Source: Bdellovibrionales bacterium (GTDB taxonomy: Bacteria; Bdellovibrionota; Bdellovibrionia; Bdellovibrionales; JAMPXM01). Taken from it: DNA of 64,000 bases. Positions within the stretch are counted from its first letter, which is position 1; each line of letters starts with the position of its first letter. The DNA lies in NCBI GenBank assembly GCA_005808505.1, contig SYLX01000231.1, forward strand, positions 260-64,259, read 5' to 3'. The translations under genes were made by a program, and so were the position numbers. This document shows, piece by piece, positions 13,668-36,723 of this stretch. The notes below the pieces were generated by a model. The model was not told the DNA's origin. It did not search any database and saw only the letters and a program-made list of their open reading frames with translations.

Positions 13668-13690
13668 GGATTCAAATCCTTATCTGATTC

Positions 13691-21245: not shown

Positions 21246-22247
21246 ATGGAAATTTCCGTATTTATCAATAGCCGCGCCGGCCGCGCGGACCGGGAACTCA
21301 TTGAAAAAGCGGTGCGCACGGCGCTCTTTCGTTGCAAGCTTCGTTTTCTCACGCCGACGAGCATTCCAGAGCTTCAAGCAAACGTTTTAGAGGAAGCAAA
21401 GACCGCCGACGCGTTGATGATCTGCGGCGGCGACGGCACATTAAACGCCGCCCTCCAGCCGCTCTTAAGCGCGCGCGAGACGTTTGAACGTTTTCCGACG
21501 ATCTGCCCTCTTCCCGTCGGCACGGCGAACGATTTCGCCCAAGAGCTCGGAATCGGTCACCGCATCGAACGAGCCGCGCGCCTTGTTCTTGAGGGTGAAA
21601 TCCAAGACGTAGATGTCTTGCAAGTGACTTCGGGTAATAACGAGGCCTTCATGCTGACCAACGGTGGGCTCGGAGTTCCTGCCGAAACGGCTGATCTCGT
21701 AAATCGGTTCCGCAAGTGGCTTGTCGAAACTTCGGAATGCGATGATGTTAAAGCTCACTGGCGCCCGGTGCTTCAGCTCGGAAAACACGCGGTGAAAAAA
21801 GCGGGCTCACGGATTTACGAGCTGACACTCGCGGGGAAGTTGACCCAGTGGTCGATTAACGATTGGAAAGTCGAAGTCGAAATCCCTGGGCAAACGATCC
21901 TCACGACTCACGCACCGTTCATCATGATCAATAATCAAAAGGTCCTCGGAGCCAATTACCAAGCGGCCCCTCTGACGGCGAACAACGACGGCACGTTTAA
22001 CATCATGCTCGTGACCGCCCTCACGTTGGCTGATCAAGCGAAAACGCTGATGAAGATTCGCAAGGGCGAAATCCCGAGCGAAATGGATTGTCCCCGCTTC
22101 GAGGCTTCGGAATGCACGATTCGTCGTCGCGGCGTGCGGCCCCTGACATTCTTCGGTGATGGCGAAATTCTCCACCGCGAGGTTGAAGAAGTTCATGTCC
22201 GCTGTTTGCACCGCGCGCTTCCAGTCTTTGTAAGAGGTGCGGCGTGA
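21246..22247 (+). CDS. Diacylglycerol/sphingosine-kinase-family lipid kinase (YegS/DgkB-like)
   Basis: FINSRAG, GGDGT, LPVGTANDFA, GDGE. Start at MEISVF. Confidence 0.9.
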   Translation: MEISVFINSRAGRADRELIEKAVRTALFRCKLRFLTPTSIPELQANVLEEAKTADALMICGGDGTLNAALQPLLSARETFERFPTICPLPVGTANDFAQELGIGHRIERAARLVLEGEIQDVDVLQVTSGNNEAFMLTNGGLGVPAETADLVNRFRKWLVETSECDDVKAHWRPVLQLGKHAVKKAGSRIYELTLAGKLTQWSINDWKVEVEIPGQTILTTHAPFIMINNQKVLGANYQAAPLTANNDGTFNIMLVTALTLADQAKTLMKIRKGEIPSEMDCPRFEASECTIRRRGVRPLTFFGDGEILHREVEEVHVRCLHRALPVFVRGAA

Positions 22248-23269
22248 AGCGTCTTCAAATTCTCGTAACGGGCGGAACAGGTTTCCTTGGTAAATACGTG
22301 ATGCCTCTTCTCGCTGCGGACTCTTCGGTGCACGCGACGGGACTTTCACGTTCGCAACCCGAAACTCTCCGTGGTGATCTCACGAAGTGGGACGGCGGAA
22401 TCGATGCTTCAAGTCTGCGCGGTGCCTTCGATGTTCTGCTGCACATGGCTGGACATTACGATTTGCGCGCGACGCAAGAAGAAGCATTTCTTCACAACAT
22501 CGCCGGCACTCACAACGCGCTTTCGCTCGCGCAGAAGGCGGAGATTCCGCACATCGTCCACATCTCGACGGTTGCCGTGACGATGAGTCGATCAGGACAG
22601 CGCAAACCCCTTGGCCCTGAGGAACTCGACGTGATCGGCGATTGGCCGGACGCCTACGCTGAAAGTAAAGCGCACGCGGAAAAAATCGTGCGGAGTTGGG
22701 ACTCGATACACTTTAAATCTCGGTTGATTCTCCGCCTCGGAGTTCTCACTGGCGACACGCAAGGCGGCGCGATCCCGCGCATCGATGGGCCGTATCACAC
22801 GGTCGAAAGCTTTCAGCGATTGCGAAAGTTCATCGAAAAAATTCCGGGCCCCGTCCCACTGCCGGGTCGCCGTGGTCGACGACTTCCGATGGTTCCCGTA
22901 GATCGTGCGGCTGAAGCGATTGTGTCGCTTCTCCTCCGCTCGCGGAAAGAAAAATGGGAAGGTACCAAAAGCCTTTACGTCGTGAGCGATCGAGGTCCCA
23001 CGGCCGAAGAACTTTTTCGTTCAACCTTCCGGCACATCGGCCTTCCTCGCGATGTGCAACTTCTTTCGGAACTCCCCTACGGCCTGGTGAAGTCCGCGGC
23101 AGAAAAGCTTACCGGTTTGCCTGCAGAGGAGCTTGAATACGTTTTGCGTTTCCCTCGGTTTGACTTAAGCGAAACCCGGAGCCTTTTGGGCGCGGAATGG
23201 TGCCCGGAGTTCTCTGACTACGAAGCTGCATTCTGGAGAGGCTATGAGTCGTACGTACAGAATCGCTGA
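22244..23269 (+). CDS. Extended SDR; fatty acyl/thioester reductase-like (male-sterility/AcrA1 N-domain type)
   Basis: VTGGTGFLG, HMAGHYDL, YAESK (YxxxK), GDTQGG..RIDGPY; GTGA overlap with the kinase. Confidence 0.8.
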   Translation: MKRLQILVTGGTGFLGKYVMPLLAADSSVHATGLSRSQPETLRGDLTKWDGGIDASSLRGAFDVLLHMAGHYDLRATQEEAFLHNIAGTHNALSLAQKAEIPHIVHISTVAVTMSRSGQRKPLGPEELDVIGDWPDAYAESKAHAEKIVRSWDSIHFKSRLILRLGVLTGDTQGGAIPRIDGPYHTVESFQRLRKFIEKIPGPVPLPGRRGRRLPMVPVDRAAEAIVSLLLRSRKEKWEGTKSLYVVSDRGPTAEELFRSTFRHIGLPRDVQLLSELPYGLVKSAAEKLTGLPAEELEYVLRFPRFDLSETRSLLGAEWCPEFSDYEAAFWRGYESYVQNR

Positions 23270-25391
23270 GCTTTCATTCGGCTCCAGCCGCTGGGATTCT
23301 TCTTACTCCTTCGACATCCACATCGATCGCTTCGAGGTGCAGCGCTTTGGCTGCGAATTCTCGGTGCCGATGGTGAAGTCTTTGATTCAAAGTCTTCGCT
23401 CGCAAGTTGATGCGTTTGCGATTACGTCTCTACCGAAAGAAATTCGTTTCGATGATCGCACTTACGTCCACCGCCAAACCCTCGAAGTCATGTCGACGCC
23501 GTCGAGCGTTCCGATCTGTAGCGGCGAGCGATTGAAGGAGCTTGCGAACATCAATGGTCTCTCGCTTGCGATCAAAGAGAAGCGCATTGTACCGCAGGAC
23601 GGAATTTATTTTCCGTTAGGACTCTTGAATCTTGAGTGTGCGAAGTTTCTCCACGAAAAACACAACGCGCGTTTACTGTATGGCGATCTCGCTTCGCTCT
23701 TTGGAATCCCGGTCATCGCGGATCCGCACTCGAAGATTCTCGCGGCGGTAAAATTTGGTTTGCACGCGGCGAACCTCACGGATCTCAAGAAGCTGGCACC
23801 GGGCCAGTCCTCGCGAGCGCGACGCTACATGGGAGCTGCGAGCTCTCTCGTTTCACTTCGCGACGTGCGCCACATCTTCGTGGACCTGCCGGTACTCTTG
23901 CTTTTTGAGCCCGCCCTTGAATTTGTGCGCGGAAAAGACATCATCGTTCCGTACTCGCATCCGCGCATGGAAGAAGCTCTCGCTCCTTATAAACCGGCGT
24001 CTATTCAGAGCTTGTTCCCCGAGAATTTTAAATGGATTCATCCCTACCTGAATTACTCAGTATTGGATGCGGCCTTGCGACTTTCGAACGGCGTGGATGC
24101 GCCTCTTTCGCTCGAAGCGTGGGAAGAGTTGCTCCAGACGAAGACGGAAGTCACGCAGGCGACGAAGCGCTACATTTTGGGTGCTCGTCCCTCAACCCAA
24201 GTGAAGGTCACCCAACGCGTTCGCAAATTCACTCGTCGAATCAACGCGGAACGCGAACCCGATTTCGCATTCGTGGTTCATTGCCTTTCGTATGATCACC
24301 TCTTCCGCGCGCCCGTCGTGGGACCGCTTTTAAAGCGCGCACCTCCGGAGTGGAACCCCGTCATTGAGAAGAACATCGCCAAACTTCCCGGCATCGTCTA
24401 CGGACGTGCAAGTGGAATCGTGAGCCGCAAAACCGGCCGCGAAACGACCGGAATTTTGTACGGTCTTTTCGCGACTCCGAAGATCATGCGCGAAGAACCG
24501 CCGGAAGTGACGTACGAAAAGATTGAGAAGCTGTGCTATCACGCAGCTGAACAAGGTGCGAAGATCATCGGACTCGGCGCATACACAAAAGTTGTGGGTG
24601 ATGCGGGCGCCACGATCAATCGCAATAGTCCGATCCCGGTCACCACAGGGAATTCTTTGTCGGCGTCCGCCACCCTTTGGGCTTTGTACGAAGCCGTGAA
24701 GAAAATGGATTTGCTCGTGCGCGATCCCGAGTCGGGCCGCTTCGACGCTACGGCGTGCGTGATTGGTGCGACGGGTTCCATCGGAAAAGTTTCGGCAAAG
24801 CTCTTGAGCATGGACTACAAGCGGCTTTGTTTAGTGGCTCCTCGCATGGAGCGGTTGCTCGAATTGAAAGCTGAGATCGAAATTCTGTCGCCCGGCTGCG
24901 AAGTCACCGTCTCTACAAAAGCAAACGACGTTGCCGCTGGCATCGACGTTTTGGTCACAACGACTTCAGCTTTTGATCAGAAGATCGTGGACGTCGAACA
25001 GCTGAAGCCTGGGTGCGTCGTCTGCGATTGCTCGCGGCCGTTGGATTTTACTTTGGAAGATGCGATTAAGCGCCCCGACATCTTGATCATCGAGTCTGGC
25101 GAAGTGATTTTGCCTGGCTCCGGCCGGCAGTTCAACTGTGACCTGGGACTTCCCGGTAACGTCGTGTTTGCGTGTCTCGGCGAGACGGCGTTGTTGTCGA
25201 TGGAGGGCTTGCACGAACCGTTCACACTCGGACGAGAAATCGAGTGGTCGAAGGTTCGACGCATCGACCACCTTGCGCGCGAACATGGAGTGGAGCTCGC
25301 GGCGATCACGGGCCTGCACGGCCTGATTACCGACAAAGAAATTGCGCTCACCCGAAAACTTGCGCTCGAACGCCGCCGTCGTGCGGGTTGA
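23244..25391 (+). CDS. Two-domain protein with a C-terminal acyl-ACP-reductase-like (COG5322) NAD(P)-dependent domain
   Basis: FAFVVH, IIGLGAYTKVVGD, VTTGNS, GATGSIG, DCSRP, FACLGETALL. N-terminal half uncharacterised (LSFGSSRWD...VDAFAI). Confidence 0.78.
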   Translation: MSRTYRIAELSFGSSRWDSSYSFDIHIDRFEVQRFGCEFSVPMVKSLIQSLRSQVDAFAITSLPKEIRFDDRTYVHRQTLEVMSTPSSVPICSGERLKELANINGLSLAIKEKRIVPQDGIYFPLGLLNLECAKFLHEKHNARLLYGDLASLFGIPVIADPHSKILAAVKFGLHAANLTDLKKLAPGQSSRARRYMGAASSLVSLRDVRHIFVDLPVLLLFEPALEFVRGKDIIVPYSHPRMEEALAPYKPASIQSLFPENFKWIHPYLNYSVLDAALRLSNGVDAPLSLEAWEELLQTKTEVTQATKRYILGARPSTQVKVTQRVRKFTRRINAEREPDFAFVVHCLSYDHLFRAPVVGPLLKRAPPEWNPVIEKNIAKLPGIVYGRASGIVSRKTGRETTGILYGLFATPKIMREEPPEVTYEKIEKLCYHAAEQGAKIIGLGAYTKVVGDAGATINRNSPIPVTTGNSLSASATLWALYEAVKKMDLLVRDPESGRFDATACVIGATGSIGKVSAKLLSMDYKRLCLVAPRMERLLELKAEIEILSPGCEVTVSTKANDVAAGIDVLVTTTSAFDQKIVDVEQLKPGCVVCDCSRPLDFTLEDAIKRPDILIIESGEVILPGSGRQFNCDLGLPGNVVFACLGETALLSMEGLHEPFTLGREIEWSKVRRIDHLAREHGVELAAITGLHGLITDKEIALTRKLALERRRRAG

Positions 25392-25440
25392 GGATTCGGG
25401 CCGGGGCGTGGTTTCGGGGTTATGATTGCGCGTCGCATCC

Positions 25441-25465
25441 CGGAAAGGTGCCAGGCACCTTTTCG
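25441..25465. repeat. REP-like palindrome AAAGGTGCC-A-GGCACCTTT between convergent genes
   Basis: Perfect 9-bp arms at 25444-25452 and 25454-25462 with a 1-nt centre; extends imperfectly to 25441/25465. Confidence 0.7.
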
Positions 25466-25485
25466 CGGGCCCCCAGCCCCAACGC

Positions 25486-26712
25486 TCAACTCCGCAACAA
25501 CTCTGGAATCGACTTCCGCACAAGCCGCACGATCGGGATCAACGACGCGATCACCGTCGTCACCGCAGGCAAGAGCAAAGCTTGCAGATAGTGTTGCCCT
25601 TGGATCTCCAAGAAGATCCGGAACTCGCGTGTGATCCCGGGTCCGGGCGGCATCGGGATGCCGCTGCGGAAGGCGAGGCGATCCAAGAGAACCGCGATCA
25701 CAATCCCGACAATGCCACCCGCCACGCCAAGAAACGCGCTCTCACACAACAAAATGCGGAACAAACGACCGCGGCTCTCACCGTTTGCGCGCAATGCACC
25801 GACTTCGCCCGCGCGCTCGAGAAGTCCGACAGCAATCGTGTTGAAGATCCCAAGCGCCACGATCAAAAGCATGATCGAGCGAATGAAGCTGAATTGACTC
25901 TCCAGGAACTTCACCGCGTTTTTGTAGTAGACCGCATCGAGGTCATCGAACGGTTTCGCGTCAAGCTCCGGAAGAGCCGCGGTGATCGCCGCGTGCGCAG
26001 TCGGCCACGCCTCAACGCCGCTCGTCTGAATCGCGAAGTGCTCAACGCGATCCGTATCTAAAAGGCTTTGCGCACGATCAAGATCAATGCGGAAGAAGGA
26101 GTCATCAAACTCTTTCGAACCCGTATGAAAGATCCCGCGAACCGTGAGCTCTAGGCCGTTCATCTGACCATGAACGGTCTGCCCAAGCACAGTGACGAGG
26201 TCCCCAACTTTCAATCCCAAACTCTCCGCCAATCCGCGACCGAGGATGATCTCGTCGGAACCCTCCGCGGAGCCTTCAAGATCACTTCCGGAGATGAAGT
26301 TCATCGCCGTGAAAAACGTGCGCTCGCGATTGGGGAGAATGCCCTCACCACGACCGGCGAGCGTAAGGCCACCCTTCATGAGGAAGGCGTAAAAACTCAA
26401 ACGCGGAAAGACTTCAATAACTTGGCCGGTCGCCTTCAACTTCTTCTCGACGTCTTCCCGACCCGAGATCCAAGTCTTCCACGGCTCCTCAGTCTTTTTA
26501 TCGTAGTAGCCCTTGGGAAAAACATAACCATGGCCGTAGCGGACACGAATCGTGTTCTCGCGGTACTGGTTCATGATGCCTTCGTTGAAGCCTTGATAAA
26601 TCAAAAGTCCCGCGGCGCCGAGCGCTACAGTGAGAAGGCTTGCCGCCGTTCGACGTGGATTCCGAAAGAGATTGCGCCAGGCGAGGAGAACAAGCGTCGT
26701 AAGTGAATTCAT
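25486..26712 (-). CDS. ABC transporter permease, MacB/FtsX/LolE family
   Basis: AWRNLFRNPRRT; one TM, a large periplasmic loop, then three TMs; ERAGEVGALRANG. Confidence 0.92.
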   Translation of the reverse strand: MNSLTTLVLLAWRNLFRNPRRTAASLLTVALGAAGLLIYQGFNEGIMNQYRENTIRVRYGHGYVFPKGYYDKKTEEPWKTWISGREDVEKKLKATGQVIEVFPRLSFYAFLMKGGLTLAGRGEGILPNRERTFFTAMNFISGSDLEGSAEGSDEIILGRGLAESLGLKVGDLVTVLGQTVHGQMNGLELTVRGIFHTGSKEFDDSFFRIDLDRAQSLLDTDRVEHFAIQTSGVEAWPTAHAAITAALPELDAKPFDDLDAVYYKNAVKFLESQFSFIRSIMLLIVALGIFNTIAVGLLERAGEVGALRANGESRGRLFRILLCESAFLGVAGGIVGIVIAVLLDRLAFRSGIPMPPGPGITREFRIFLEIQGQHYLQALLLPAVTTVIASLIPIVRLVRKSIPELLRS

Positions 26713-27395
26713 GTCGACGCTCCTTTCTCCAAGAGACCATCCCGAAGTGTGAACAAAGTTTCCGCGTACGAAACGAGGTGCGTATCGTGGGTCGAAAAGA
26801 TGAAACTCACGCCTTCTTTTTTCTGAAGATCTTTGAAGACGCCAATGATTGTTTCGCTCGTTGCGCGATCCAAATTCGCTGTGGGCTCGTCAGCAAGAAT
26901 GACCTTCGGTCGTTTTGCCAATGCACGTGCGATCGCAACTCGTTGTCGTTGTCCGCCTGAAAGCTCACCCGGTCTCTTGTGTCTGTGTTCAAAGAGCCCA
27001 AGCTTCGCGAGAGTTTCTTCTCCACGAGCCAACGCTTCTTTCTTCGACAGACCGAGCGGGCCGAGAAAATAGGTTGTGTTCTCAAGCGCTGAGAGTGTCG
27101 GAATCAAATAGAAAGCTTGGAAAACGAAACCGAGATCCGCAAGCCGCATCGACTGAAGATCGTTCTCACCGAGTGCACTTACGTCGCGCCCTAGAAATTC
27201 AATCTTCCCGGCGTGCGGCTGATCGAGAAGCCCGAGCAAGTTGAGCAAGGTCGTCTTACCACTTCCCGATGGACCTACGAGGCAAACGAAGGAGTTCTGT
27301 GGTACCGACAAAGTGACACCTTTTAAAACCGGGACTTTCGTTTTCCCCCAGTCGTATCCGTATCCAAGTGAACTGATTTTGTAGAGTTCCGTCAT
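26709..27395 (-). CDS. ABC transporter ATP-binding protein, LolD-like
   Basis: GPSGSGKT, LSGGQRQRVAIARAL, ADEPTANLD, STHD. Start at MTELYK after GAGG. Confidence 0.95.
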   Translation of the reverse strand: MTELYKISSLGYGYDWGKTKVPVLKGVTLSVPQNSFVCLVGPSGSGKTTLLNLLGLLDQPHAGKIEFLGRDVSALGENDLQSMRLADLGFVFQAFYLIPTLSALENTTYFLGPLGLSKKEALARGEETLAKLGLFEHRHKRPGELSGGQRQRVAIARALAKRPKVILADEPTANLDRATSETIIGVFKDLQKKEGVSFIFSTHDTHLVSYAETLFTLRDGLLEKGAST

Positions 27396-27530
27396 CCTAG
27401 ACCTCGGGACGAAGAGGAAGGCAAAAAGCAGGTACAGTTTAGGGCGGTGATCTCCGAAACACGAGTCGAGTTTCTCACTCGAAGCTTCGCAACGATGCGG
27501 AAGACTTGTAGAATCAGGCCTTGAAGGAGC

Positions 27531-28286
27531 TTGAGCCAAATGAATATGCAATTCGCAGTTACGCCCATGGGATTCCTCATCTGCAGCGCAATTGCCACGG
27601 CGCTCGCTTCCAGCTTCATACCCGAAGCCTCGCTCGCCGGCAAAAGCAACGGCGAACAGATGCTCGCGAAAGCCGACCATATCCGCAATCCCTCAAGTTC
27701 CTACCGCATGCGCATTGGCGTAAAAAGCGAAGACGATGAACGCGAATTTGACGTCTTTCTCAAAGGCACCGACAAGACCTTGATCGTGGCTAAAGAGCCA
27801 GCCCGCATGCGCGGACAAAACATGCTCATGCTCGATCGCGACTTCTACGCTTACGTTCCGAACTTGAAGAAATCTCTTCGCCTGAGTCTGTCGCAGAAGA
27901 TGATGGGACTTGTCGCTAACGGCGACATCGCGCGAACACGCTGGTCAGGCGATTACACCGTTTTCGTTGAAAAGGGCGACGCCAAAGAAACGCAGATGCT
28001 CCTAAACGGCACGAAGAAGAATCTCACTTACCAAAAAATTCGTCTCTGGCTAGACACCTCAACGTCACGACCTCTTCGCGCGGAATACCTTTCACTCAAT
28101 GGTAAAGCCGTTTTGAAAAAAGCGGCTTTTGAGGAATACAAAACTCTCGCGGGAAGCCAACGCCCCAGCCGCATTCGTATCGAAGACGCCGGCGGCAAAC
28201 AGAGCACGATCGTGATTCAAGATATGGAATCGAGCGATCTCGACGAGAGCACCTTCACGCTCGCGAATTTAGAGAAAGCAAAGTAA
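27531..28286 (+). CDS. LolA-like outer-membrane lipoprotein-sorting periplasmic protein
   Basis: Signal peptide; GQNMLM; YVPNLKKSLRLS..QKMMG..ANGDI; YQKIRLW. Start may be 27540. Confidence 0.85.
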   Translation: MSQMNMQFAVTPMGFLICSAIATALASSFIPEASLAGKSNGEQMLAKADHIRNPSSSYRMRIGVKSEDDEREFDVFLKGTDKTLIVAKEPARMRGQNMLMLDRDFYAYVPNLKKSLRLSLSQKMMGLVANGDIARTRWSGDYTVFVEKGDAKETQMLLNGTKKNLTYQKIRLWLDTSTSRPLRAEYLSLNGKAVLKKAAFEEYKTLAGSQRPSRIRIEDAGGKQSTIVIQDMESSDLDESTFTLANLEKAK

Positions 28287-29416
28287 TGCGCATTTGGGGG
28301 TCAGCCGTCACGCTCACCTCCTTGCTTTTTGCGACCGCACATCCGTGTCTCACCTGGGCGCAATCGACTTCAGCCAAAAAGAGAAATCCTTGGGAAGTCT
28401 CGGCCGTGCTGAACCCGCGACTCACGGCACTTCAAGCCAACGAAGGCGAGTTTTCTCGCGCGACGTTTCTTAAGTCTTCGCTCACCGCAAAAAAGGGCGG
28501 CTTCGGATTGTTCGCCGAAGGATTTGTAGAACACGATTTTGCGGAGTGGGACAAACAACCAACAGCGCTCGCATTACCCGAGCTCCGCAAATCGCGGGAC
28601 ACGGGTTACCTCCAAGAAGCTTATCTCGAGTATCAATACTCGCGCGTATCGATTCGCGCAGGTCGCCAGTCCGTGCGCTGGAGTCAGTCGTGGACCCTTC
28701 CGTCACTTGATGTGTTCACCGCGAGAAGATGGAACCGGCTCTTTCTTGATCCGTTACCTGAGCAGCTCGTACATTCGGATGGTGTACTCCTCAGCTACGC
28801 GGCGTCCGACATCGAGGCCGATCTCTTTCAAGTGATTCAGCCAGCGGAGAACTCTTTTCCCGAACCTCTCCCGAACGAAACACGCAAGCCCGAAGCGCAA
28901 ACCGGCGCGCGGATCAAAGCGCGCGTAAAGGGCTTTGACGTCATGCTCATGGGACGAATCAAGCCGAACGAAGTTCTAGGCGGAGCCGCCCTTAGCTACG
29001 CGCTTGATTGTTGCGTTCTCAAAGTTGAAGGCGGCAAAGTCGAAGCCAGCAAAGGATTTTTCATCGCGGGTGTCGATGTCTTCCTAGGAGATTTCTCGTT
29101 TCAACCGCAAGCGACTTGGTTTCAAGATCCCGTGCTCACAAACAAGGATATCGAAACGATCTTGTACGCCCCCCTTCGCTATACTTGGGGCCGCACGACG
29201 TTCGAGGCTCAATACTTCCGTTACATCGAACGCGAGGATCAATTTGCTTCGGCCTTGATCAGCCGAGATCTTGGCGAGTGGGCGAAGAGTTCTTTCAAAA
29301 TTTCAGCATTCATTCAAAACTACGAAGGTCGCGACGACCGACTCTTTGGCATCTACCGATTGCAGACAAGCGGAACGGTCGGCGGCATCTCGCTCGACAT
29401 CCTAACGTCGTTATAA
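28286..29416 (+). CDS. Putative outer-membrane beta-barrel partner of the LolA-like protein
   Basis: Signal peptide; LQEAYLEY...RAGRQSVRWS...DVF; TAATG coupling. Confidence 0.7.
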   Translation: MRIWGSAVTLTSLLFATAHPCLTWAQSTSAKKRNPWEVSAVLNPRLTALQANEGEFSRATFLKSSLTAKKGGFGLFAEGFVEHDFAEWDKQPTALALPELRKSRDTGYLQEAYLEYQYSRVSIRAGRQSVRWSQSWTLPSLDVFTARRWNRLFLDPLPEQLVHSDGVLLSYAASDIEADLFQVIQPAENSFPEPLPNETRKPEAQTGARIKARVKGFDVMLMGRIKPNEVLGGAALSYALDCCVLKVEGGKVEASKGFFIAGVDVFLGDFSFQPQATWFQDPVLTNKDIETILYAPLRYTWGRTTFEAQYFRYIEREDQFASALISRDLGEWAKSSFKISAFIQNYEGRDDRLFGIYRLQTSGTVGGISLDILTSL

Positions 29417-29426
29417 CGAGGGAAAA

Positions 29427-30518
29427 ATGGCGTACTTCGAAGGCCTTAACTATTCACTCTCAAACGAAGACACCCGCATCGAACACACGTTACTACCGGA
29501 GGGCGCGGAGCGCGTTTTCTCGATTTGCGGCTCGGGCGCACGTGTACTCCCCTTGGTTGCGAAAAACCCCATGCGCCTTGATTGCGTTGATCTCTCGCGG
29601 GAGCAGCTTCTCCTGTGCGAATTGCGCCTCGCCGCTGCCAAAGCTCTTTCGAACGAAGAGTATCTTTTCTTCCTCGGATACCGCGGCGGAGTTTTCTCAA
29701 ACTCTGTAGTGGCGGACAAGCGTTCAACCCTCTTTGATCGATTAAAACTTTCCCCCGAAGCCCATCAATTCTGGGCCGAGAGACGCCAAGGCTGGGAGCC
29801 GCGTGGTTTCATTTTCTTGGGAAAGTGGGAATCCCATTTTCAAAACTTGGGAAAGATCTTTCGCAATATCCTTCGGCTCGATATGCGGCCGATCTTCGAA
29901 GCCCACAGTCTCGATGAGCAACGAAGACTCTTCGAGAAGCACTGGAAGCCTCGCGTATTCGCTACCTTCTTAAAAGTCGCGGCGAGCGAATACGTCTTCA
30001 ACAAGTTTCTTTATAAAGGGCATTTCTCGGGCGCAACCGAATCACGTACCGAGGCTCGCTCCCCGTCTACATTCATTGAAGAAGAGTTCACCCGCATCTT
30101 CAAAACTACCCTCGTTCGCAAGAACTACTTTATGCAAATTCTCTTCCTCGGCGGCATCTACTACGAAGAAGGCCTGCCGATCGAAGCGCAACCGATGTGT
30201 CTGGATAAAGTCCGCAGCTCAAAGACAGAGGTGAGTTTCTTGACCGAAAACCTCATTGAAGTTTTGAAGCGAGAAACTTACGACTTCGTCTCGCTTTCGG
30301 ACACGATCTCGTATCTGCCGCATGACCTTGCGAGTTCGATTCTGCAACTGTTACCCGCAAATACGAAATCCGGCGCGCAGATGATCATTCGATCGTTTTT
30401 GCGTAAACCTCCGGGCTTGAACACCGAAGGATGGCGCGAGGAAATCGAGCTCAACGAGTGGGCAAAGAAGCTCGACACCACGGCCGTCTACGATTTCGAT
30501 ATCTTCTCAAAACTTTGA
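29427..30518 (+). CDS. DUF3419/BtaA-family SAM-dependent 3-amino-3-carboxypropyl transferase-like protein
   Basis: NYSLSNED, FSICGSGARVL, VDLSREQL.LCELRLAA, GKWE, VSLSD. Confidence 0.82.
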   Translation: MAYFEGLNYSLSNEDTRIEHTLLPEGAERVFSICGSGARVLPLVAKNPMRLDCVDLSREQLLLCELRLAAAKALSNEEYLFFLGYRGGVFSNSVVADKRSTLFDRLKLSPEAHQFWAERRQGWEPRGFIFLGKWESHFQNLGKIFRNILRLDMRPIFEAHSLDEQRRLFEKHWKPRVFATFLKVAASEYVFNKFLYKGHFSGATESRTEARSPSTFIEEEFTRIFKTTLVRKNYFMQILFLGGIYYEEGLPIEAQPMCLDKVRSSKTEVSFLTENLIEVLKRETYDFVSLSDTISYLPHDLASSILQLLPANTKSGAQMIIRSFLRKPPGLNTEGWREEIELNEWAKKLDTTAVYDFDIFSKL

Positions 30519-30533
30519 TTTCGAAGCCCTGGA

Positions 30534-31577
30534 TCAGAGCAGCTTAGAAAATAGCGTGTACTCGTGCTCCCAGAGGAGGCTTCCTTTTTTCGCAAAGGAT
30601 TCACTCTGGGCGCCGGTTTTTACGAGCGCGGTGATGTATTTGTTCACACCTTTTTTGAGAGCCTTTTCGGCCGCAAGGTACGCCACCGCATTAGAGATAC
30701 CTTTGCCGCGAGCTTGCGGAACTACAGCTGTACTCTTGAGTACAAGGTGCCCCTGATCTTCGTAGCAGAAGAAAAAGCCAACGCCTTTGCCGTCTTTATC
30801 GAACGCGATGTGCGAGAGCGAAAGATCAGATTTCCCGGCGATAGGAACGTAGAGGGCGCGGAAGACTTCAAACGGAATTGGCTCGAACAGAAAATTGTCC
30901 TTAAAGCCTTGGCTGCTGATTTCGTAAAGAACTGGAACATCCTTCTCGAGGAACTGAATTGGTTCCACCGTGCGGAAGGTGTATCCCGCAGCTAGCGCCC
31001 CGTCATAAGCAGGTTTTGTCTTCGCCGCGAACGCATCGAGTTCGCCGTGCGCTTTGGTGGCGTAAAGTTCGCATGTTTCGTAACCAGCGGACTTCCAGAT
31101 GTCGACGTATTCCGGAGGGTTCACCGGCTCCCAGCCAAAAAATAAATCTTGTTTATCAATATTTTGCGAGGTGCGGAATCGATACGGGAACCAAGTGTTG
31201 AAGTTCATCGGACCGTAAGCTGTCTTAACACCTTTAGCTTTGAGCCACGATTCGGCCGCTTCGAGCAATTTACCTCCCGCTTCAATGCCGGCGGGGGTAG
31301 TCAGGTCACATTCAAAAAATCCGATGGCGCCTTCGTCCGCCTTCGTTGCGGAAACGTTTGCGCCGATGCGTCCCAACGCGCGACCGAGATCGTCTTCAAC
31401 GATCCAGAATTCTTTTGCAAACTTCGTTGGCTGACAAATAAAGCCGATCCACACGGGAAAAGGAAGAAGACCCGTGCGGTACGGAGCTTGACGTACACCC
31501 TCCTGAAGCTTCGAGAATGAAGTCAAAAACCGATCGAAGTCAGCGCCGGCAAGATTTGAAAAACACTTCAGCCGCAT
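30534..31577 (-). CDS. Tandem GNAT N-acyltransferase (YghO-like)
   Basis: GRIGA, IGFFEC, AAESWLK..G....GPMN, EPVNPPEY, C-terminal VVPQARGKGIS acyl-CoA motif A. Confidence 0.82.
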   Translation of the reverse strand: MRLKCFSNLAGADFDRFLTSFSKLQEGVRQAPYRTGLLPFPVWIGFICQPTKFAKEFWIVEDDLGRALGRIGANVSATKADEGAIGFFECDLTTPAGIEAGGKLLEAAESWLKAKGVKTAYGPMNFNTWFPYRFRTSQNIDKQDLFFGWEPVNPPEYVDIWKSAGYETCELYATKAHGELDAFAAKTKPAYDGALAAGYTFRTVEPIQFLEKDVPVLYEISSQGFKDNFLFEPIPFEVFRALYVPIAGKSDLSLSHIAFDKDGKGVGFFFCYEDQGHLVLKSTAVVPQARGKGISNAVAYLAAEKALKKGVNKYITALVKTGAQSESFAKKGSLLWEHEYTLFSKLL

Positions 31578-31594
31578 GATCTAAAAACCCTTCT

Positions 31595-34405
31595 TTAAAC
31601 CGCTTTTGTCTCGTTCGCGCCACTTGCGGCGGAAGAAACTGACTCATCCGTTCCGAGAATGCGGACTTCACCGCGCGCACCATCAATGCGCACACGCATC
31701 CCCGTCTTGAGCTTCTTCATAAGCCCTCCGGTGATGCCCACGATTGTGGGAAGACCCAGTTCCCGGGCGACGACCGCCGAGTGCGACAACAAGCTGCCTC
31801 GTTCGATCAAGAGCCCAGAGCACGATGGATAGAGCGGCACCCAACCTGGATCCGTACGCTCCGTCACGAGAATCTGTCCTTCAAGACCTTCCGCATCTTT
31901 GACTTCGCGTACGACGCGCACCACCCCCTCGACGACGCCGGGGCAGCAGGGTGTGCCGATCAAAACATTCGGATCGGTTGAAACCGGACGCTCAGAGCGC
32001 ATGAGATCTTGTTCAACCAGAACTTGGGCGTAAGGAAGACTCACACCCACCGCTCCCGTCGTGAGGAAGCGATCAGGCGGAGGAAGACCTTTATCAAACT
32101 TTTTAAACTCTTCTTTACGAAGACGCGCGAGCGTCTTGAGATCGATTTGAACCGTTCGTCCTTCGTTGAACGCAATCAGTTCTTCAACCGTGAGATAGAA
32201 GACATCGCGCGGCTGATCGAGAAGACCGAGGCGATAAAAGTTCTCGCCCATCGCGCGGAACAAACGGCGCGCAATTCCGAAGACTTTCGTGCGCGCAAAA
32301 CGCAAGTTCTCGCGATTTCGCACGGCTTTGCGCGTTTGTTTTACGATCCAGAAATACGCATGGCGGCGTACAAACGAGAGCTTTGCACCGACCTCTTTTT
32401 CAGCTTTCGCGCGGATTTCGCGCTCACGCTCTTCCATCTTGCGGATATCGTAAGATTTCGTTTTGACGTAGCTTACGATCGACGAAATTGCGAACGCCGG
32501 ATCATCGTGAAGATCGTTTTCTTCAAGCTTCAATTCATTGATACAACGGAAGCCGTAGCGATCTAAGAAGTCGAAAATCAAAGCGCCGAATTCCGGGAAC
32601 TTTCTTTTTTCGCTGAGCTCTATCCAAATCACCGAAGCGTGAGTCGAGAGGAACCACTCGCGAACAGGCCCGCCGGTTTGATCGATCTTCTCCGCGATTC
32701 GCATGAGCGTCTTTGTTGGCTCGGTGCTCTCGAGATCTCCCTCACCACAGAGTAAGTCGTTTTGAAGAGATGAGCCCACGTCACCGCTCGCAACCCACTT
32801 CTCCGTGAGCTTCTTCAAAACACCAAAGAAGACCATGCAAAGATAGTCGTTGATAATCGGCGCCTGCCACTTCTTTAGAAGCTGCTCTTCAAGCTCGTGA
32901 TAGCTCTCGATCTGTTGGCTCAAAGAAAGAGCTTTAAAATCGCGCTTACGTGCAGCTTCGTAGACGTTTAAAAAGTGCGACTGGAATCCGCCCACGATCG
33001 AATCGATGCGACGAAAACGCGAGAGCGTTTGGAAGCCTAATCCAATCTTGTGAGCAACGCTGTACCGAGGCGGATTTTTTACGAATTCAAAAAGTCCCGC
33101 GATTTGTTGCGCAACATCGGGACGGAGCCCTTGTCGCACGCCCATCATCGTCTCCATGAAACCTTTATTGGAGGACGAGCCTGGCAACATCAAAACGAGT
33201 TTGTACCAGTTGATGAGGTTGTAATAAACGCGGCCGCGGATGAGACCGAGCATATTGCGGAACATCGGTTCCCGCTCTTCGATGAGAGACGCCGGAACGC
33301 CCATGACTTGGCAAAACTGGATGTAAACTTGGCGGTAAGCGCGGCTTGCAAACGAAAAAGTGAGCGGGGTTGTGACTCCGCTATAGCTCTCCACGATGTT
33401 CGAGTTATCCCAAAGAATCGGTTCAGCGCCGCGCACGGAATCGAGATAAAATAGATCGGGCGGCAGATTCGTGATCGCGCGCGTTTGTACGCAATAGAGC
33501 TTCCCGGCCTCGAATGCCCACTCTAAATCCTGCGGAGCACCTAACTTTTCTTCGAGGAGCAACGCAAGCTTTGCGACTTCGACGACTTGCTGGTCCGTGA
33601 GGGATGAGACCTTTGCATGCTCGGCAGTTACTTTTACAACGTGAAGTCCGCCTTCAGGAGCCTGGCGAAAAGATTCCGATTTTTCAAGGATCTCGGCTTT
33701 GATCGCCATCGAGGATCGATCGACATCGTAGGTATCGGCATCGAGAGCGCCACTGACGAGACCCTCACCTAAGCCGTAAACGGAGCTGATGAGGAGACTC
33801 TGCCGATCCAGCGACCGAATCGGATTTCGTGAGAAGGCGACGCCGCTGGATTCCGCATTGACCATTTTTTGAATGACCACACCCACGTGGATCGGCCACA
33901 GCGGCAGCCCACGCTCCAGGCGATAACTGAGCGCGCGCTCGCTGAAACCAGAAGCCCAGCATTTTTTCAGAGAGAATAAAATTTCGGATTTCGATTTTTG
34001 AAAGAGATAGCTTGAGAACTGACCTGCAAATGAGTTTTCGGCTGAGTCCTCATCAAGTCCACTTGAGCGGACGGCAACGAAATGGTCATCGAGCCCGAGT
34101 CGCTTGAGCTCAGATTCGATGGCTTGCGAGACCTCGGGACTGACCGAACAGCCCACGATTCTTTTTTCAGCTTCTTGCGAGAACGAGCGAAGTCTTTCGG
34201 GCGTGATCTCGCCTTCCGTGATCGAAGCGAGGAAATCCTCGATCATGTTGCCTTTGATGAATCGGGCCATCGCTTCACTCGAAACGCAGAACCACGCCGG
34301 CACCGGTGCTCCCAAACGCGCAAGGTGTGCCATATTGCGGGCTTTCCCGCCCCCTAGGAGCGAGAAAGACTCGATCGAGTCATCGGATTTCAAGATGAAA
34401 TTCAT
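31595..34405 (-). CDS. PEP-utilizing enzyme of the PigC/rifampin-phosphotransferase architecture
   Basis: GGKA, VAVRSS..EDS..SFAGQ, QDLEWA, QTRAIT; large central domain; C-terminal TDPGW and SHSAVVARE (phospho-His). Confidence 0.92.
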   Translation of the reverse strand: MNFILKSDDSIESFSLLGGGKARNMAHLARLGAPVPAWFCVSSEAMARFIKGNMIEDFLASITEGEITPERLRSFSQEAEKRIVGCSVSPEVSQAIESELKRLGLDDHFVAVRSSGLDEDSAENSFAGQFSSYLFQKSKSEILFSLKKCWASGFSERALSYRLERGLPLWPIHVGVVIQKMVNAESSGVAFSRNPIRSLDRQSLLISSVYGLGEGLVSGALDADTYDVDRSSMAIKAEILEKSESFRQAPEGGLHVVKVTAEHAKVSSLTDQQVVEVAKLALLLEEKLGAPQDLEWAFEAGKLYCVQTRAITNLPPDLFYLDSVRGAEPILWDNSNIVESYSGVTTPLTFSFASRAYRQVYIQFCQVMGVPASLIEEREPMFRNMLGLIRGRVYYNLINWYKLVLMLPGSSSNKGFMETMMGVRQGLRPDVAQQIAGLFEFVKNPPRYSVAHKIGLGFQTLSRFRRIDSIVGGFQSHFLNVYEAARKRDFKALSLSQQIESYHELEEQLLKKWQAPIINDYLCMVFFGVLKKLTEKWVASGDVGSSLQNDLLCGEGDLESTEPTKTLMRIAEKIDQTGGPVREWFLSTHASVIWIELSEKRKFPEFGALIFDFLDRYGFRCINELKLEENDLHDDPAFAISSIVSYVKTKSYDIRKMEEREREIRAKAEKEVGAKLSFVRRHAYFWIVKQTRKAVRNRENLRFARTKVFGIARRLFRAMGENFYRLGLLDQPRDVFYLTVEELIAFNEGRTVQIDLKTLARLRKEEFKKFDKGLPPPDRFLTTGAVGVSLPYAQVLVEQDLMRSERPVSTDPNVLIGTPCCPGVVEGVVRVVREVKDAEGLEGQILVTERTDPGWVPLYPSCSGLLIERGSLLSHSAVVARELGLPTIVGITGGLMKKLKTGMRVRIDGARGEVRILGTDESVSSAASGANETKAV

Positions 34406-34447
34406 GTTGCGTTTCCTGTCGGCAGTTCTTATTTGGCGTTCGGGCTG

Positions 34448-35305
34448 TCAACGCAACAAGCCGAGCCAATACGAAAACGCGATTCCCCATATGTGGAAGA
34501 GAAGCGAAAGGGTCGCGAGTCCTTCTGTTAGCTTGAAGGCAGATGGCGACTTGAACAAGCGAATTGCGCTCACCAAAACCAAGACTTCGGCCCACCACAT
34601 CCAGAGACCTAGCCCTAAGCCTTGCGCGCCGATCGCCGCGACGGCGTTGCAAACTAACAAAATCAGAAACACTTTTCTGATGCCGTACACGGCGAGGTAC
34701 GTCCGCTGGAGTTCGTGGGCGGAGGGATCAAGCTTTCGCGAGACTTCGTAAGAGAAAAACGCGCCTAAAACTGCGAGTGCGAAAAACCACGCCGCAGCGG
34801 CCGATGGGGCTTGCGCCGAATGACAACTCACCGCAAATAGGCAAACGGGAACCAATATGAGTTGGTGCGAAATGGCGTAAAGGAGAGGACGTTTCGCTAG
34901 CCACTCCCCTAAACAAAATTCCTTGTACATCAGCCATAGCCAGACCGTGACGATGGCAAGCAATACACCTGCGGTGACGGACGTGATCAAACTCACAACG
35001 AGCGCATAAGTGAAAAGAGCTGTGGTGAATATAGGTATCTGCTTCGCCACTCTCTTCGCATCTAGAACGCCCCGAGGAAGCGGTCGCTCCGGATGAACGA
35101 TCAAATCTTTTTCGTAATCTTTGAGTTCATCCATCAGGCGCAGGATGAAAAAGAAACCCAATAAACCAAAGAAGGTCAGAGCACTTGGTCCGACGCGAAA
35201 GCCAGGTGCGGCTAAGAAATTTCCGGAAAGGCTGATACCACCGACAAGAAGGGCATAGACCGGGAGAGGAAAACGTTCTTTGATGTAAATCAGCCAGCTT
35301 GCCAT
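34448..35305 (-). CDS. UbiA-family prenyltransferase
   Basis: Multi-TM; RLMDELKDYEKD (DxxxDxxxD); ERPLPRG; YEVSRK. Confidence 0.88.
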   Translation of the reverse strand: MASWLIYIKERFPLPVYALLVGGISLSGNFLAAPGFRVGPSALTFFGLLGFFFILRLMDELKDYEKDLIVHPERPLPRGVLDAKRVAKQIPIFTTALFTYALVVSLITSVTAGVLLAIVTVWLWLMYKEFCLGEWLAKRPLLYAISHQLILVPVCLFAVSCHSAQAPSAAAAWFFALAVLGAFFSYEVSRKLDPSAHELQRTYLAVYGIRKVFLILLVCNAVAAIGAQGLGLGLWMWWAEVLVLVSAIRLFKSPSAFKLTEGLATLSLLFHIWGIAFSYWLGLLR

Positions 35306-36723
35306 GGTTTCCTCGTTTTTGCCGAAGCCGCCCGGTCAATGCGGGCGCGGTGTCGTCGGTCACGCTGAATTTCAACTTCAAACAGTCGACTCGAAGCCTC
35401 GAGCGCTAAAAGTTTTTCGACTTCTTTACGTTTAGCACGATCAATATCAACACAGATCTCGAATCGCCCGTCGGTCTCGATGACGAACGCTTTGCTTGAT
35501 CCGAGGAGCGAGTAAACTTTTTGCTCAAGGTCAAAGCTCCTTGGGCTTTGCCCCGATCGCCCCGCGTACCACCACCCGCTCTCATCGGTCCGCACGCGGT
35601 CGCCCATGGAGTGCCACACGCGGCCCTCGGCGTCTTTTCGTTTGTGAAGGCGGTTTTCTTCTTCCCCACCGATGTAGAGCGGACAAACGTGAGGCCCCGC
35701 AACCCAGAGATTATCAGCTTCGATCTTCGCACTTATCGCGGAGACCGGTTGACCAAGCGAAAGAGCTTGGAAGTAGCCACGATCCCGCGAGCGACGAACG
35801 GATTCGCGTGCATCGATGAGACTCACCGGCTCCGCTTCGCTTGAGCCGTAGATGTGAACGACTTCGGATTCCGGGAAATGTTGAAACGCGTTTTCAAAAA
35901 TCCAACAATCCGTGAGGGCACCACCTACGTGAATCGACTCTAAACTCGGCAAACGGCAGGTCTGCATGAGCTTGAGTAGAAACGCAGGCCCACAGGTGAG
36001 CGACTCCGGACGCAAATCTTTCGGAAGACTCTCAAGCCAACGTAGATCTTTATTTCTCCATTTCGGTGGAACAAGAATCGTTCCCCGCCCCGACGCCAAA
36101 TTCGCGAGTGCAAAATTCGCGAAGATGCAGAGATCTGGGCCCGCATGATCCTCGAGATGAAGCGCACTCGAGAGGATGCGGTGTTGCTCGATCATGTATC
36201 CCTGGCCGCGCACGACGCCTTTGGGCTCGCCCGTCGTTCCGCTCGTGAAGGTCAGAATGCCAGGAGTTTCCGGAGCGACTCTGATGATTTCAAGAGGAGA
36301 GTTCGTTTCGCCATCGATAGAGCTTGCGTGAAGCCATTTGGGAATCTCGCGCGCCGCCTTTAGCCGCGCGCCCCAAAGCCAGCCGAGCGTCGCCGCCGAA
36401 AAGATCTTTGGCTTTGCGAGACGCAGAACCTTATTGATTCGCTCAACCGGCATCCACGGCTCAACGAGAACCGCCGTTGCTCCCGTCGCTAAAATTCCAA
36501 TGACAGATGCATACAGGCGAGGACTCAGATGATCGATCAATAGAACCGAGTCGCCAGGCGCAAGGCCTGCGCGTCGGTATACGGCTTGTGCGTAGGATCC
36601 CCGTTTTAAAAGTTCACCAAAAGAAACGCCTTCGGAAAACGGCAGCTGAATGGCCATCTTCTCCGGGTGTTCCTGTGCATGCTGCTTGAAGAGTTCGACC
36701 GCATTCAGAACTGCTTTTTGCAC
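35290..36723 (-). CDS. AMP-dependent acyl ligase (OleC-like)
   Basis: FTSGTTGEPKG, YGSSEAEP, WHSMGD, DRRHRARIDR. Confidence 0.88.
   Translation of the reverse strand: MQKAVLNAVELFKQHAQEHPEKMAIQLPFSEGVSFGELLKRGSYAQAVYRRAGLAPGDSVLLIDHLSPRLYASVIGILATGATAVLVEPWMPVERINKVLRLAKPKIFSAATLGWLWGARLKAAREIPKWLHASSIDGETNSPLEIIRVAPETPGILTFTSGTTGEPKGVVRGQGYMIEQHRILSSALHLEDHAGPDLCIFANFALANLASGRGTILVPPKWRNKDLRWLESLPKDLRPESLTCGPAFLLKLMQTCRLPSLESIHVGGALTDCWIFENAFQHFPESEVVHIYGSSEAEPVSLIDARESVRRSRDRGYFQALSLGQPVSAISAKIEADNLWVAGPHVCPLYIGGEEENRLHKRKDAEGRVWHSMGDRVRTDESGWWYAGRSGQSPRSFDLEQKVYSLLGSSKAFVIETDGRFEICVDIDRAKRKEVEKLLALEASSRLFEVEIQRDRRHRARIDRAASAKTRKPWQAG

Follow-up and report, generated by a model that had tools for sequence, protein, structure and literature searches.

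Twelve genes lying between positions 21246 and 36723 of the window, the 64,000-nucleotide stretch of Bdellovibrionales DNA analysed here (contig SYLX01000231.1), may constitute one dedicated system for producing an amphiphilic metabolite anchored in the membrane and for passing it on to the outer membrane, a reading that we hold with about as much confidence as doubt. The chain of this metabolite is probably an isoprenoid or an alkyl group and, on the best reading of the protein sequences, it would carry an N-acylated amino-acid group derived from S-adenosylmethionine (SAM). That the genes form one system is argued from their co-inheritance in relatives together with their co-localisation, at 25-60% identity and in shuffled orders. 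The more specific product put forward in an earlier note on this DNA, a prenylated or ether-linked, aminocarboxypropylated and N-acylated lipid, would be plausible and is a sum of the functions of the families concerned. Each gene belongs to a known family, and it is their combination, as a biosynthetic cluster with a dedicated exporter, that appears to be new; the product may be a new lipid class. That earlier note, made from the sequence alone, had named no characterised pathway of the same composition, and literature searches, with subscription journals largely outside them, likewise found no published description of the gene set. The combination matches no pathway known to us.

The window comes from contig 218 of a Bdellovibrionota metagenome-assembled genome (MAG; assembly of 5.05 Mb in 269 contigs, 93% complete with 7% contamination), and its G+C content is even along its length; a search of this genome for 16S rRNA yielded no match. 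The interval holds 12 open reading frames (ORFs) in four units of overlapping or nearly abutting genes, at the coordinates and on the strands that the earlier note had given for them. The forward unit g1-g2-g3 overlaps by 4 bases (g1/g2) and 26 bases (g2/g3), and the reverse unit g5-g4 by 4 bases; in the forward unit g6-g7-g8 an overlap of 1 base (g6/g7) is followed by a gap of 10 bases (g7/g8), while in the reverse unit g12-g11-g10-g9 the first two genes overlap by 16 bases and the next gaps measure 42 and 17 bases. The start of g1 is likely 21246 because homologues align only from residue 79 onward, although the ORF could begin at 21012, and g5 probably starts at the ATG at 27395 rather than at the first start codon of its ORF, which is open to 27680. 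The genes, with one candidate for a thirteenth member, are as follows.

g1, 21246..22247, forward strand: soluble lipid-kinase-like enzyme (DAGK_cat and YegS_C)
g2, 22244..23269, forward strand: extended short-chain dehydrogenase/reductase type thioester/aldehyde reductase (NAD_binding_4, 'male sterility' type)
g3, 23244..25391, forward strand: protein of 715 aa with two domains, an N-terminal alpha/beta domain and a C-terminal AAR/PigE-N-type thioester reductase
g4, 25486..26712, reverse strand: MacB/LolCE-type permease of an ATP-binding cassette (ABC) transporter, with FtsX and periplasmic MacB_PCD
g5, 26709..27395, reverse strand: ABC ATPase of the LolD/MacB/DevA type
g6, 27531..28286, forward strand: LolA-like periplasmic protein with an N-terminal signal/anchor segment
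g7, 28286..29416, forward strand: outer-membrane beta-barrel, DUF1302-like by its predicted fold
g8, 29427..30518, forward strand: DUF3419 protein (BtaA family, SAM-dependent-transferase fold)
g9, 30534..31577, reverse strand: predicted tandem-GNAT N-acyl(aminoacyl)transferase
g10, 31595..34405, reverse strand: three-domain phosphotransferase resembling phosphoenolpyruvate synthase, of the PigC/RedH/rifampicin-phosphotransferase (RPH) kind
g11, 34448..35305, reverse strand: UbiA-superfamily intramembrane transferase with a variant active site
g12, 35290..36723, reverse strand: adenylate-forming (ANL) ligase
g13 (candidate thirteenth member), 37028..37798, forward strand: protein of 256 aa with a signal/anchor segment, divergent from g12

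The families proposed in the earlier note were recovered by Pfam or NCBIfam for g1, g2, g4, g5, g6, g8, g9, g10 and g12, and the barrel of g7 by predicted structure only. The assignment of g11 to UbiA finds no Pfam match in the protein itself but agrees with NCBIfam PRK13592 and with homologues bearing PF01040; that of g3 to an 'acyl-ACP-reductase-like fusion' holds for the C-terminal part, which is PigE-N/AAR-like and has the Cys, while the N-terminal part is of no known function.

The evidence for one system lies first in its inheritance. Across 40 relatives, orthologues of g8, g3, g11 and g10 occur in an identical set of eight genomes (G004, G006, G009, G015, G017, G020, G024 and G039) and were not found in the remaining 32. 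Identities among the eight reach 55-68% for g8, 52-70% for g3, 44-52% for g11 and 60-76% for g10; in G017, g8 is matched only by a fragment of 99 residues where a contig ends, and completeness below 90% or contamination above 5% applies to 10 of the 40 relatives. Six contigs from the ortholog-bearing relatives carry the same genes in the same order within the reach of each contig, with the ABC pair missing in two. A close relative of g8 is encoded in 42 genome loci, whose record titles all read Bdellovibrionota, Bdellovibrionales, Bdellovibrionaceae, Pseudobdellovibrionaceae or Bdellovibrio and which include complete genomes of cultured Bdellovibrio strains. The runs g1-g2-g3 and g6-g7-g8 are contiguous almost everywhere in these loci and the ABC pair shifts place or is absent; g3 is detected in 37 of the 42 (four of the five misses being contigs shorter than 3.5 kb) and g10 in 27, directly upstream of g1 in seven. 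The g10 of Bdellovibrio-type loci shows only 42-44% identity. The GNAT gene g9 is confined, among the genome loci, to the clade closest to the window, and the Bdellovibrio bacteriovorus version has instead an alpha/beta-hydrolase-ligase fusion, a formyltransferase-like gene and a second ligase.

The association extends to more distant bacteria. A metagenome scan with a profile of g11 relatives was followed up in the best 80 of 300 loci (32-67% G+C), in which all gene counts are lower bounds. Of the 51 loci that leave 2 kb or more of room, 44 have a g10 homologue starting no further than 1.5 kb after g11; of the 44 loci that leave 1.5 kb or more on the other side, 34 have a g12 homologue ending no further than 1.5 kb before g11. 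Among the 25 well-flanked loci, which have at least 5 kb on both sides, g10 was found in 23, g12 in 21, and DUF3419 and the tandem GNAT in 17 each. The export genes are scarcer (ABC pair 8/25, LolA-like gene 6/25, barrel-like gene 6/25), as are those of the kinase-reductase unit (g1 7/25, g3 6/25, g2 5/25); further genes include a cytochrome P450 (4/25), a formyltransferase-like gene (4/25) and a reductase for 3-hydroxy-3-methylglutaryl-CoA (HMG-CoA; 2/25). Near-complete sets at 23-56% identity and in other gene orders occur in L062, L080, L090, L096 and L135, all on one strand in L062. Relatives of g11 carry the taxon labels Polyangiaceae, Oligoflexales, Acidobacteriota, Chlamydiales and Silvanigrellaceae; these are the labels given to metagenome bins.

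The proposal that the four units make up one system thus agrees with their co-inheritance in relatives and their co-localisation in the 42 genome loci and many of the 80 metagenome loci; the units are linked in other genomes. The genes recur together, but the 12 are not an invariant set. Their core consists of g12-g11-g10, a trio nearly always adjacent in the metagenome loci, with DUF3419 and the GNAT, and the kinase/reductase and export modules are accessory and replaceable.

Within this core, g10 is the sole gene of the cluster attaining the score of an orthologue group: it reaches the NCBIfam equivalog NF004881 with 901 bits (cut-off 883), a model whose name is only the generic 'phosphoenolpyruvate synthase'. 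Pfam recognizes its ATP-grasp domain (PF01326, 4e-70) and its swivelling His domain (PF00391, 4e-20), the central domain being unmatched, and His875 is conserved in 69/69 sequences. The ATP-grasp/central/swivel-His architecture is shared with PigC (RedH, TamQ), but the central domain of g10 matches no solved relative and the protein scores far under the cut-offs of PigC (320 vs 1300), RedH (332 vs 1350) and Rph (358 vs 999). The closest solved structure is that of the Listeria RPH (5fbs, 7e-81), with which g10 shares the catalytic His; only the ATP-grasp and His domains of the two align, and unlike RPH, g10 lies in a biosynthetic context.

The membrane protein g11 has 8 hydrophobic segments in a transmembrane scan and is matched by NCBIfam PRK13592 (5e-12) and by the digeranylgeranylglyceryl phosphate (DGGGP) synthase model (7e-7); among structures in the PDB it is closest to DGGGP synthase (6m31, 1.3e-5) and also resembles chlorophyll synthase. 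The protein itself has no PF01040 match at E 0.01, while many homologues at 41-58% identity carry this domain. With the UbiA superfamily (DGGGP synthase, chlorophyll synthase, UbiA) it shares the 8 segments, the first Asp-rich motif and RPLPRG. The block RLMDExKDYxxD...RPLPRG is invariant in 17 aligned sequences, and D59, E60, K62, D63, D67 and RPLPRG recur in 95/95 tblastn matches; the first motif, D59-E60-x-x-D63-x-x-x-D67, is a conservative N-to-D, D-to-E variant of (N/D)DxxDxxxD. The second Asp-rich motif (DxxxD) is replaced by Y-E187-x-x-R190-K191, of which E is conserved in 87/88 sequences and R and K in 88/88, the next Asp being not conserved. The family has 143 representatives at E up to 1e-30 in a library clustered at 50%.

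The ligase g12 is assigned by PF00501 (1.4e-29) and by NCBIfam PRK09274 (2e-45), the amino-acid-adenylation domain (7e-23) and OleC (1e-21); its closest solved structures are adenylation (A) domains of non-ribosomal peptide synthetases (NRPS; 1.5e-13), DltA and FadD10. Ten of the best 150 g11 representatives span 746-778 aa with the g11 part C-terminal, and all four of these that were scanned (P0242, P0246, P0278 and P0375) have an AMP-binding N-terminus, that of P0242 being 46% identical to g12 over 475 aa. In such ligase-g11 fusion proteins PF01040 scores up to 42 bits, around its cut-off of 34.2. Because natural ligase-UbiA fusion proteins exist, it is very probable that g12 and g11 work, at the membrane, on one and the same molecule. 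We know of no characterised UbiA-superfamily member with a fused adenylating ligase; in the present family this fusion is found in some organisms.

The other two core genes suggest the head group. The g8 protein, encoded by a single-copy gene, matches PF11899 (1.9e-53) over residues 4-355, the same Pfam family as BtaA of the BtaA/BtaB pathway to diacylglyceryltrimethylhomoserine (DGTS), and has a glycine-rich SAM-type loop in which G37 is conserved in 65/65 sequences; transfer of an aminocarboxypropyl group to a lipid hydroxyl is plausible from this likeness. It has no solved relative, with only a weak methyltransferase-like match at its C-terminus. The cluster departs from the DGTS pathway in lacking a BtaB-type N-methyltransferase (no methyltransferase family matched in the 12 genes or their neighbours with Pfam and NCBIfam), and the reductase, kinase, UbiA-type and ANL ligase neighbours of g8 have no part in DGTS synthesis. 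The product of g9 matches PF00583 in its C-terminal half (7e-8), and its AlphaFold2 model (predicted local distance difference test, pLDDT, 89.7) folds as a tandem GNAT whose best Foldseek match is MAB_4324 (1e-14, template-modelling (TM) score 0.61), followed by a glucosamine N-acetyltransferase, the clavulanate tandem GNAT, MshD and FemX. The earlier note had pointed to YghO-like GNATs, which include the bacterial ceramide synthase. An aminotransferase of the serine-palmitoyltransferase type, as in sphingolipid clusters, was therefore sought, and Pfam and NCBIfam recognised no aminotransferase family in the 12 genes or in those flanking genes that were covered.

The kinase and reductase genes would act on hydroxyls and on an activated carboxylate. 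g1 matches PF00781 (5e-20) and PF19279 (7e-10) and belongs to the YegS/BmrU family of NCBIfam, below equivalog cut-offs; YegS, BmrU and DgkB are its closest solved structures (4e-10), and its GGDG motif is conserved in 34/34 aligned homologues. g2 matches PF07993 (8e-24), PRK07201 (5.5e-38) and the NCBIfam thioester-reductase domain (2e-20), with Tyr138 and Lys142 conserved in 35/35 sequences; like the terminal reductases of NRPS it is of the NAD_binding_4 type, nearest among solved structures to that of MxaA (4u7w, 1e-6), and g3 and g2 together could take a thioester to an alcohol. In g3, residues 341-704 match positions 2-354 of the NCBIfam PigE model (1.5e-44) and the AAR model (2.6e-14), below both equivalog cut-offs (PigE 152 vs 850, AAR 53 vs 450), and the C-terminal ~370 aa match the structures of PigE (4ppm, 8.5e-20) and AAR (6jzq, 1.5e-9). 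Cys644, in 'FACLGET', aligns with Cys294 of AAR, which is Ser in the C294S entry 6jzz, and is conserved in 42/42 homologues. Like cyanobacterial AAR, g3 keeps the catalytic Cys and the Rossmann motif, to which it adds an extra N-terminal domain; in contrast to AAR/fatty acyl reductase systems, the cluster has no aldehyde-deformylating oxygenase or wax synthase. The PigE domain reduces a thioester to an aldehyde, according to an excerpt of PMC8341465; g3 lacks the aminotransferase domain of PigE.

The N-terminal ~320 aa of g3 form a two-lobed alpha/beta domain of no assigned function. They are akin to free-standing ~300-aa proteins labelled 'quinate 5-dehydrogenase', with structural matches in the Atlas to 'quinate 5-dehydrogenase-like' proteins (TM 0.73-0.74), and comparable fusions of ~700 aa exist in Pseudomonadota. 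The AlphaFold2 model of this domain (pLDDT 77) has no close solved fold; its best PDB matches (TM 0.3-0.4) are two-lobed alpha/beta proteins, AAR itself included.

Elsewhere the kinase-reductase unit appears to be replaced. An HMG-CoA reductase gene adjoins DUF3419 or g10 in seven loci that lack g1-g3 (L071, L072, L081, L107, L119, G027 and G001), and in five of them (L071, L072, L107, G027 and G001) it is fused to an APH-type kinase. Fusions of HMG-CoA reductase to an APH/EcKL-type kinase, of ~820-910 aa, are found at L071:15451-18180, L072:437-2902, L139:12575-14887 and L140:7212-9683, and in L119 the reductase gene is preceded by an ordinary acyl-CoA synthetase gene. G001 and G027 are of the same order as the window, and neither has a g3 orthologue anywhere in its genome. 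HMG-CoA reductase carries out a four-electron reduction of a thioester to a primary alcohol, and since this is what g3 then g2 could do together, we read the two arrangements as unrelated enzymes providing the same step twice, thioester to alcohol to phosphate ester, by g1-g3 or by HMG-CoA reductase and kinase. Numbers are small and flanks limited for this replacement, and the reductase might alternatively serve ordinary mevalonate supply. To our knowledge, an HMG-CoA reductase-APH kinase fusion has no counterpart among characterised enzymes. Distant versions of the cluster (L081, L092, L096, L099, L103 and L104) also hold a P450 gene, for instance at L104:2773-4245, which in L081, L092, L096 and L104 stops where the g12 homologue starts or shortly ahead of it; these genes hint at hydroxylation of a hydrophobic intermediate.

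The export genes resemble the LolCDE-LolA-LolB system in encoding together a permease of the MacB fold that has a periplasmic domain, an ATPase like LolD and a protein of the LolA fold. g4 matches PF02687 (9e-17) and PF12704 (3e-12) and the NCBIfam lolCE model (5e-28, 98 vs a cut-off of 362); g5 matches PF00005 (4e-32), LolD (2.4e-60, 203.8 bits vs a cut-off of 307.75) and DevA (1.4e-52), with MacB also among its best matches. g6, which has a hydrophobic segment at residues 8-27, is LolA_like (PF17131, 1.3e-33) and not LolA proper (LolA1 score 17 vs a cut-off of 100). All these scores stay under the equivalog cut-offs of the Lol system; the outer-membrane partner here is a DUF1302-like barrel and not LolB, and the transport genes lie inside a biosynthetic cluster and are missing from many of its versions. 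g7 has no Pfam match at E 0.01, PF06980 included, and no NCBIfam match, while its predicted structure matches a DUF1302 cluster in the Atlas (TM 0.82 over residues 5-374).

g6 lies directly upstream of g7 in all related loci that reach g6, and the two proteins are predicted to associate. The complex of mature g6 with g7, modelled from our own alignments, has an interface score (ipSAE) of 0.76 against 0.31 for the best control, passing a mark reached by 58 of 80 solved complexes and by 2 of 110 mismatched pairs; three runs share at least 90% of contacts, the pLDDT of the partners is at least 81, and the contacts are spread along the whole barrel sequence. The model supports binding of g6 to g7 and would place the LolA-like protein at or in the mouth of the barrel, which agrees with the envelope-spanning transport module of the earlier note. 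A barrel beside a LolA-fold protein, tied to an inner-membrane transporter, is also the arrangement of the Pseudomonas DUF1302/DUF1329 pairs. As far as an excerpt of 10.1101/2020.07.04.188060 goes, an inner-membrane transporter is cofit with these pairs, whose function is under debate, and mutants of Pseudomonas putida have fitness defects on fatty esters. The present pair differs in that g7 has no PF06980 sequence match and in that the transporter of the cluster is a MacB-type ABC and not a resistance-nodulation-division (RND) one.

Taken together, the families allow a set of chemical steps to be proposed, which we list in no fixed order. The central membrane step would belong to g11 and g12: g11 would join a diphosphate-activated chain, most likely an isoprenoid, to a carboxylate-bearing acceptor at the membrane, or might alternatively use a diphosphate made in the pathway, and g12 would activate the carboxylate of the same molecule as an acyl-AMP or thioester. 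The activated carboxylate could then be reduced to an aldehyde by g3 and to a primary alcohol by g2, for which other lineages would use the HMG-CoA-reductase-like enzyme, and hydroxyls would be phosphorylated by g1 and g10, the fused APH-type kinase standing in for g1 in other lineages. g8 would move the 3-amino-3-carboxypropyl group of SAM to a hydroxyl, and g9 would N-acylate the amine newly added. The product may be extracted from the inner membrane by g4/g5 and carried through the periplasm by g6, the g6-g7 complex inserting or releasing it at the outer membrane. A stricter scheme, in which a route from acid to alcohol to diphosphate feeds g11 as the universal logic of the pathway, is weakened because the reductase and kinase genes occur only in a minority of the well-flanked loci.

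Several points weigh against a single lipid-making system. Only between about one quarter and one third of the well-flanked loci have the export module and g1-g3, which are thus inessential to the core chemistry, and the full-length Bdellovibrio loci L032 and L034 have g1-g8 but no g10-g12 within 10 kb. Loci were detected by tblastn with the proteins of the window, so that their counts are lower bounds and depend on the seed gene (g8 or g11); the divergent DUF3419 gene of L092, for example, was missed by tblastn and found by Pfam only. Related genomes, moreover, are not independent samples. On the chemical side, the loss of the second motif means that classical prenyl transfer by g11 would not be assured, and no carrier protein gene is present among the ORFs of the cluster. 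The nearest solved relatives of g12 are amino-acid-adenylating domains (NRPS A domains, DltA) and not fatty-acid ligases, the proteins structurally closest to g9 use amino sugars and small amines, not lipids, as acetyl acceptors, and the nearest solved relative of g10 phosphorylates rifampicin. Consequently, the statement of the earlier note that every enzyme family here acts on acyl, prenyl or lipid substrates was too strong.

The best of the other explanations, which we nevertheless regard as unlikely, is that the product is a diffusible secondary metabolite, for example a pigment, signal or antibiotic bearing prenyl or alkyl groups, made by a logic like that of prodiginines and tambjamines, with acid activation, reduction of the thioester to an aldehyde, ATP-driven condensation by a PigC-like enzyme and efflux of the MacB type. 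g10 is an enzyme of the PigC/RedH kind, and the reductase domain of PigE, which makes an aldehyde from a thioester (PMC8341465, in excerpt), has a homologue in the C-terminal half of g3; P450 genes accompany g12 in several loci, and the patchy, accessory distribution among relatives would suit such a product. The scores against PigC and PigE are, however, far under the family cut-offs, and the cluster lacks the bipyrrole genes of prodiginine and tambjamine systems, or indeed any aminotransferase, pyrrole-forming, polyketide synthase or NRPS gene. A LolA-like chaperone with a barrel suits a water-insoluble cargo, and a UbiA-type enzyme fused to a ligase puts the chemistry in the membrane, both of which favour the membrane-anchored metabolite.

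Doubtful to a further degree is a reading of the product as a polyprenyl-phosphate-linked carrier or head group for an envelope glycoconjugate, with g11 placing a head group onto polyprenyl phosphate. The UbiA superfamily does include enzymes of the decaprenyl-phosphate phosphoribosyltransferase type; g11 keeps the first Mg/diphosphate motif and has the second altered, so that its donor or acceptor may be unusual, and the two kinds of kinase could make a diphosphate-activated small head group. Yet glycosyltransferases, flippases and sugar-nucleotide enzymes are absent from the cluster and from its recurrent accessory genes, and in sequence g11 is most similar to the prenyltransferases of ether-lipid and chlorophyll synthesis.

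It is improbable, in turn, that the genes serve the uptake and remodelling of foreign lipids from prey or the environment, with import through the barrel and the LolA-like protein and salvage by the ligase, kinases and reductases. The host belongs to a predatory phylum, a lipid kinase and acyl-activating enzymes would fit salvage, and the DUF1302/DUF1329 mutants of P. putida mentioned above show fitness defects on fatty esters (10.1101/2020.07.04.188060, in excerpt). Against this, no transport gene accompanies the g10-g12 core in about two thirds of the well-flanked loci, and the core is present, too, in records bearing the labels Acidobacteriota, Polyangiaceae and Chlamydiales. Enzymes of the DUF3419 and UbiA types serve biosynthesis, and transporters of the MacB/LolCDE type are exporters or extractors.

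A chance juxtaposition of two or more unrelated operons is hardly credible: the genes form four transcription units of alternating orientation, promoter-like sites (3 observed vs 6.6 expected) and terminator-like sites (20 vs 24.2) are not above chance, the one promoter-like site directly upstream of g6 and the one terminator-like site right after g3 being likewise not significant, and the modules are separable in some loci, but four genes from three units have an identical phyletic pattern in the 40 relatives and the co-localisation recurs at 25-60% identity in varied orders, single-strand arrangements included.

The surroundings of the cluster were compared between loci as well. Homologues of g13, just outside the interval, adjoin the cluster in 8 loci, among them the distant L080, L096, L099 and L111, and share conserved H, R, Y and E positions and an 'RH..ES' block; the protein has no Pfam or NCBIfam match and no PDB relative, and may be a thirteenth member of the system. 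On the other side, the neighbouring 463-aa protein (19670-21061) has no match beside other loci, a deacetylase-like flanking gene recurs in one locus and an M28 peptidase gene in two; these three were left out of the system because they are not recurrent neighbours. Proteins of ~450 aa encoded after DUF3419 in several lineages have no detectable relation to each other or to the 463-aa protein. Elsewhere in the window, a FemAB_like protein (PF04339, 1.3e-131) with a GNAT-type domain is encoded 3.9 kb past the cluster (40613-41791, forward strand), and a lipid-related 771-aa protein with two phospholipase-D motifs and a C-terminal VTT/DedA membrane domain at 4177-6492 (reverse strand). An AcrB-type RND pump (1056 aa) and an outer-membrane efflux protein (10497-15274, reverse strand) are apparently unrelated to the cluster.

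Additional genes are inserted in some relatives. In the clade nearest to the window, a type I phosphodiesterase/nucleotide pyrophosphatase gene (PF01663) lies between DUF3419 and the GNAT (L019:13767-15365, L025:5216-6931, and L021-L023), and a small NAD_binding_10 protein is encoded at the place of the ABC pair or beside it (L019, L021-L023, L025). In the Bdellovibrionales MAG locus L019, an ORF of 470 aa (L019:4704-6116, reverse strand) also separates g3 from the ABC permease and carries an ADP-ribosyltransferase exoenzyme domain (PF03496, 1.6e-11).

A broader proposal, which we put forward tentatively and consider rather less than probable as a whole, is that these clusters would define an unrecognised class of envelope lipids: non-glycerol molecules anchored by UbiA-type enzyme and ligase, with a SAM-derived N-acylated head group and their own Lol-like route for non-protein cargo that finishes with the LolA-like/DUF1302-like complex in the outer membrane, spread over Bdellovibrionota and over lineages labelled Myxococcota, Acidobacteriota and Chlamydiales, in which the module from thioester to alcohol to phosphate was invented twice.

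If the proposed system is real, a widespread lipid pathway would have been overlooked because the usual model bacteria lack it, DUF3419 being found in 0/14 model genomes and the g10 family (at the NF004881 cut-off) being reached in 0/14. DUF3419 proteins outside betaine-lipid synthesis would gain a function, as would phosphotransferases of the PigC/RPH type outside pigments and drug resistance, the ANL-UbiA enzyme pair or fusion, and LolA-like/DUF1302-like outer-membrane pairs. Since cultured Bdellovibrio strains carry a version of the cluster, knock-outs combined with lipidomics are feasible. The product may be relevant to the ways in which predatory bacteria construct or mask their outer membrane.

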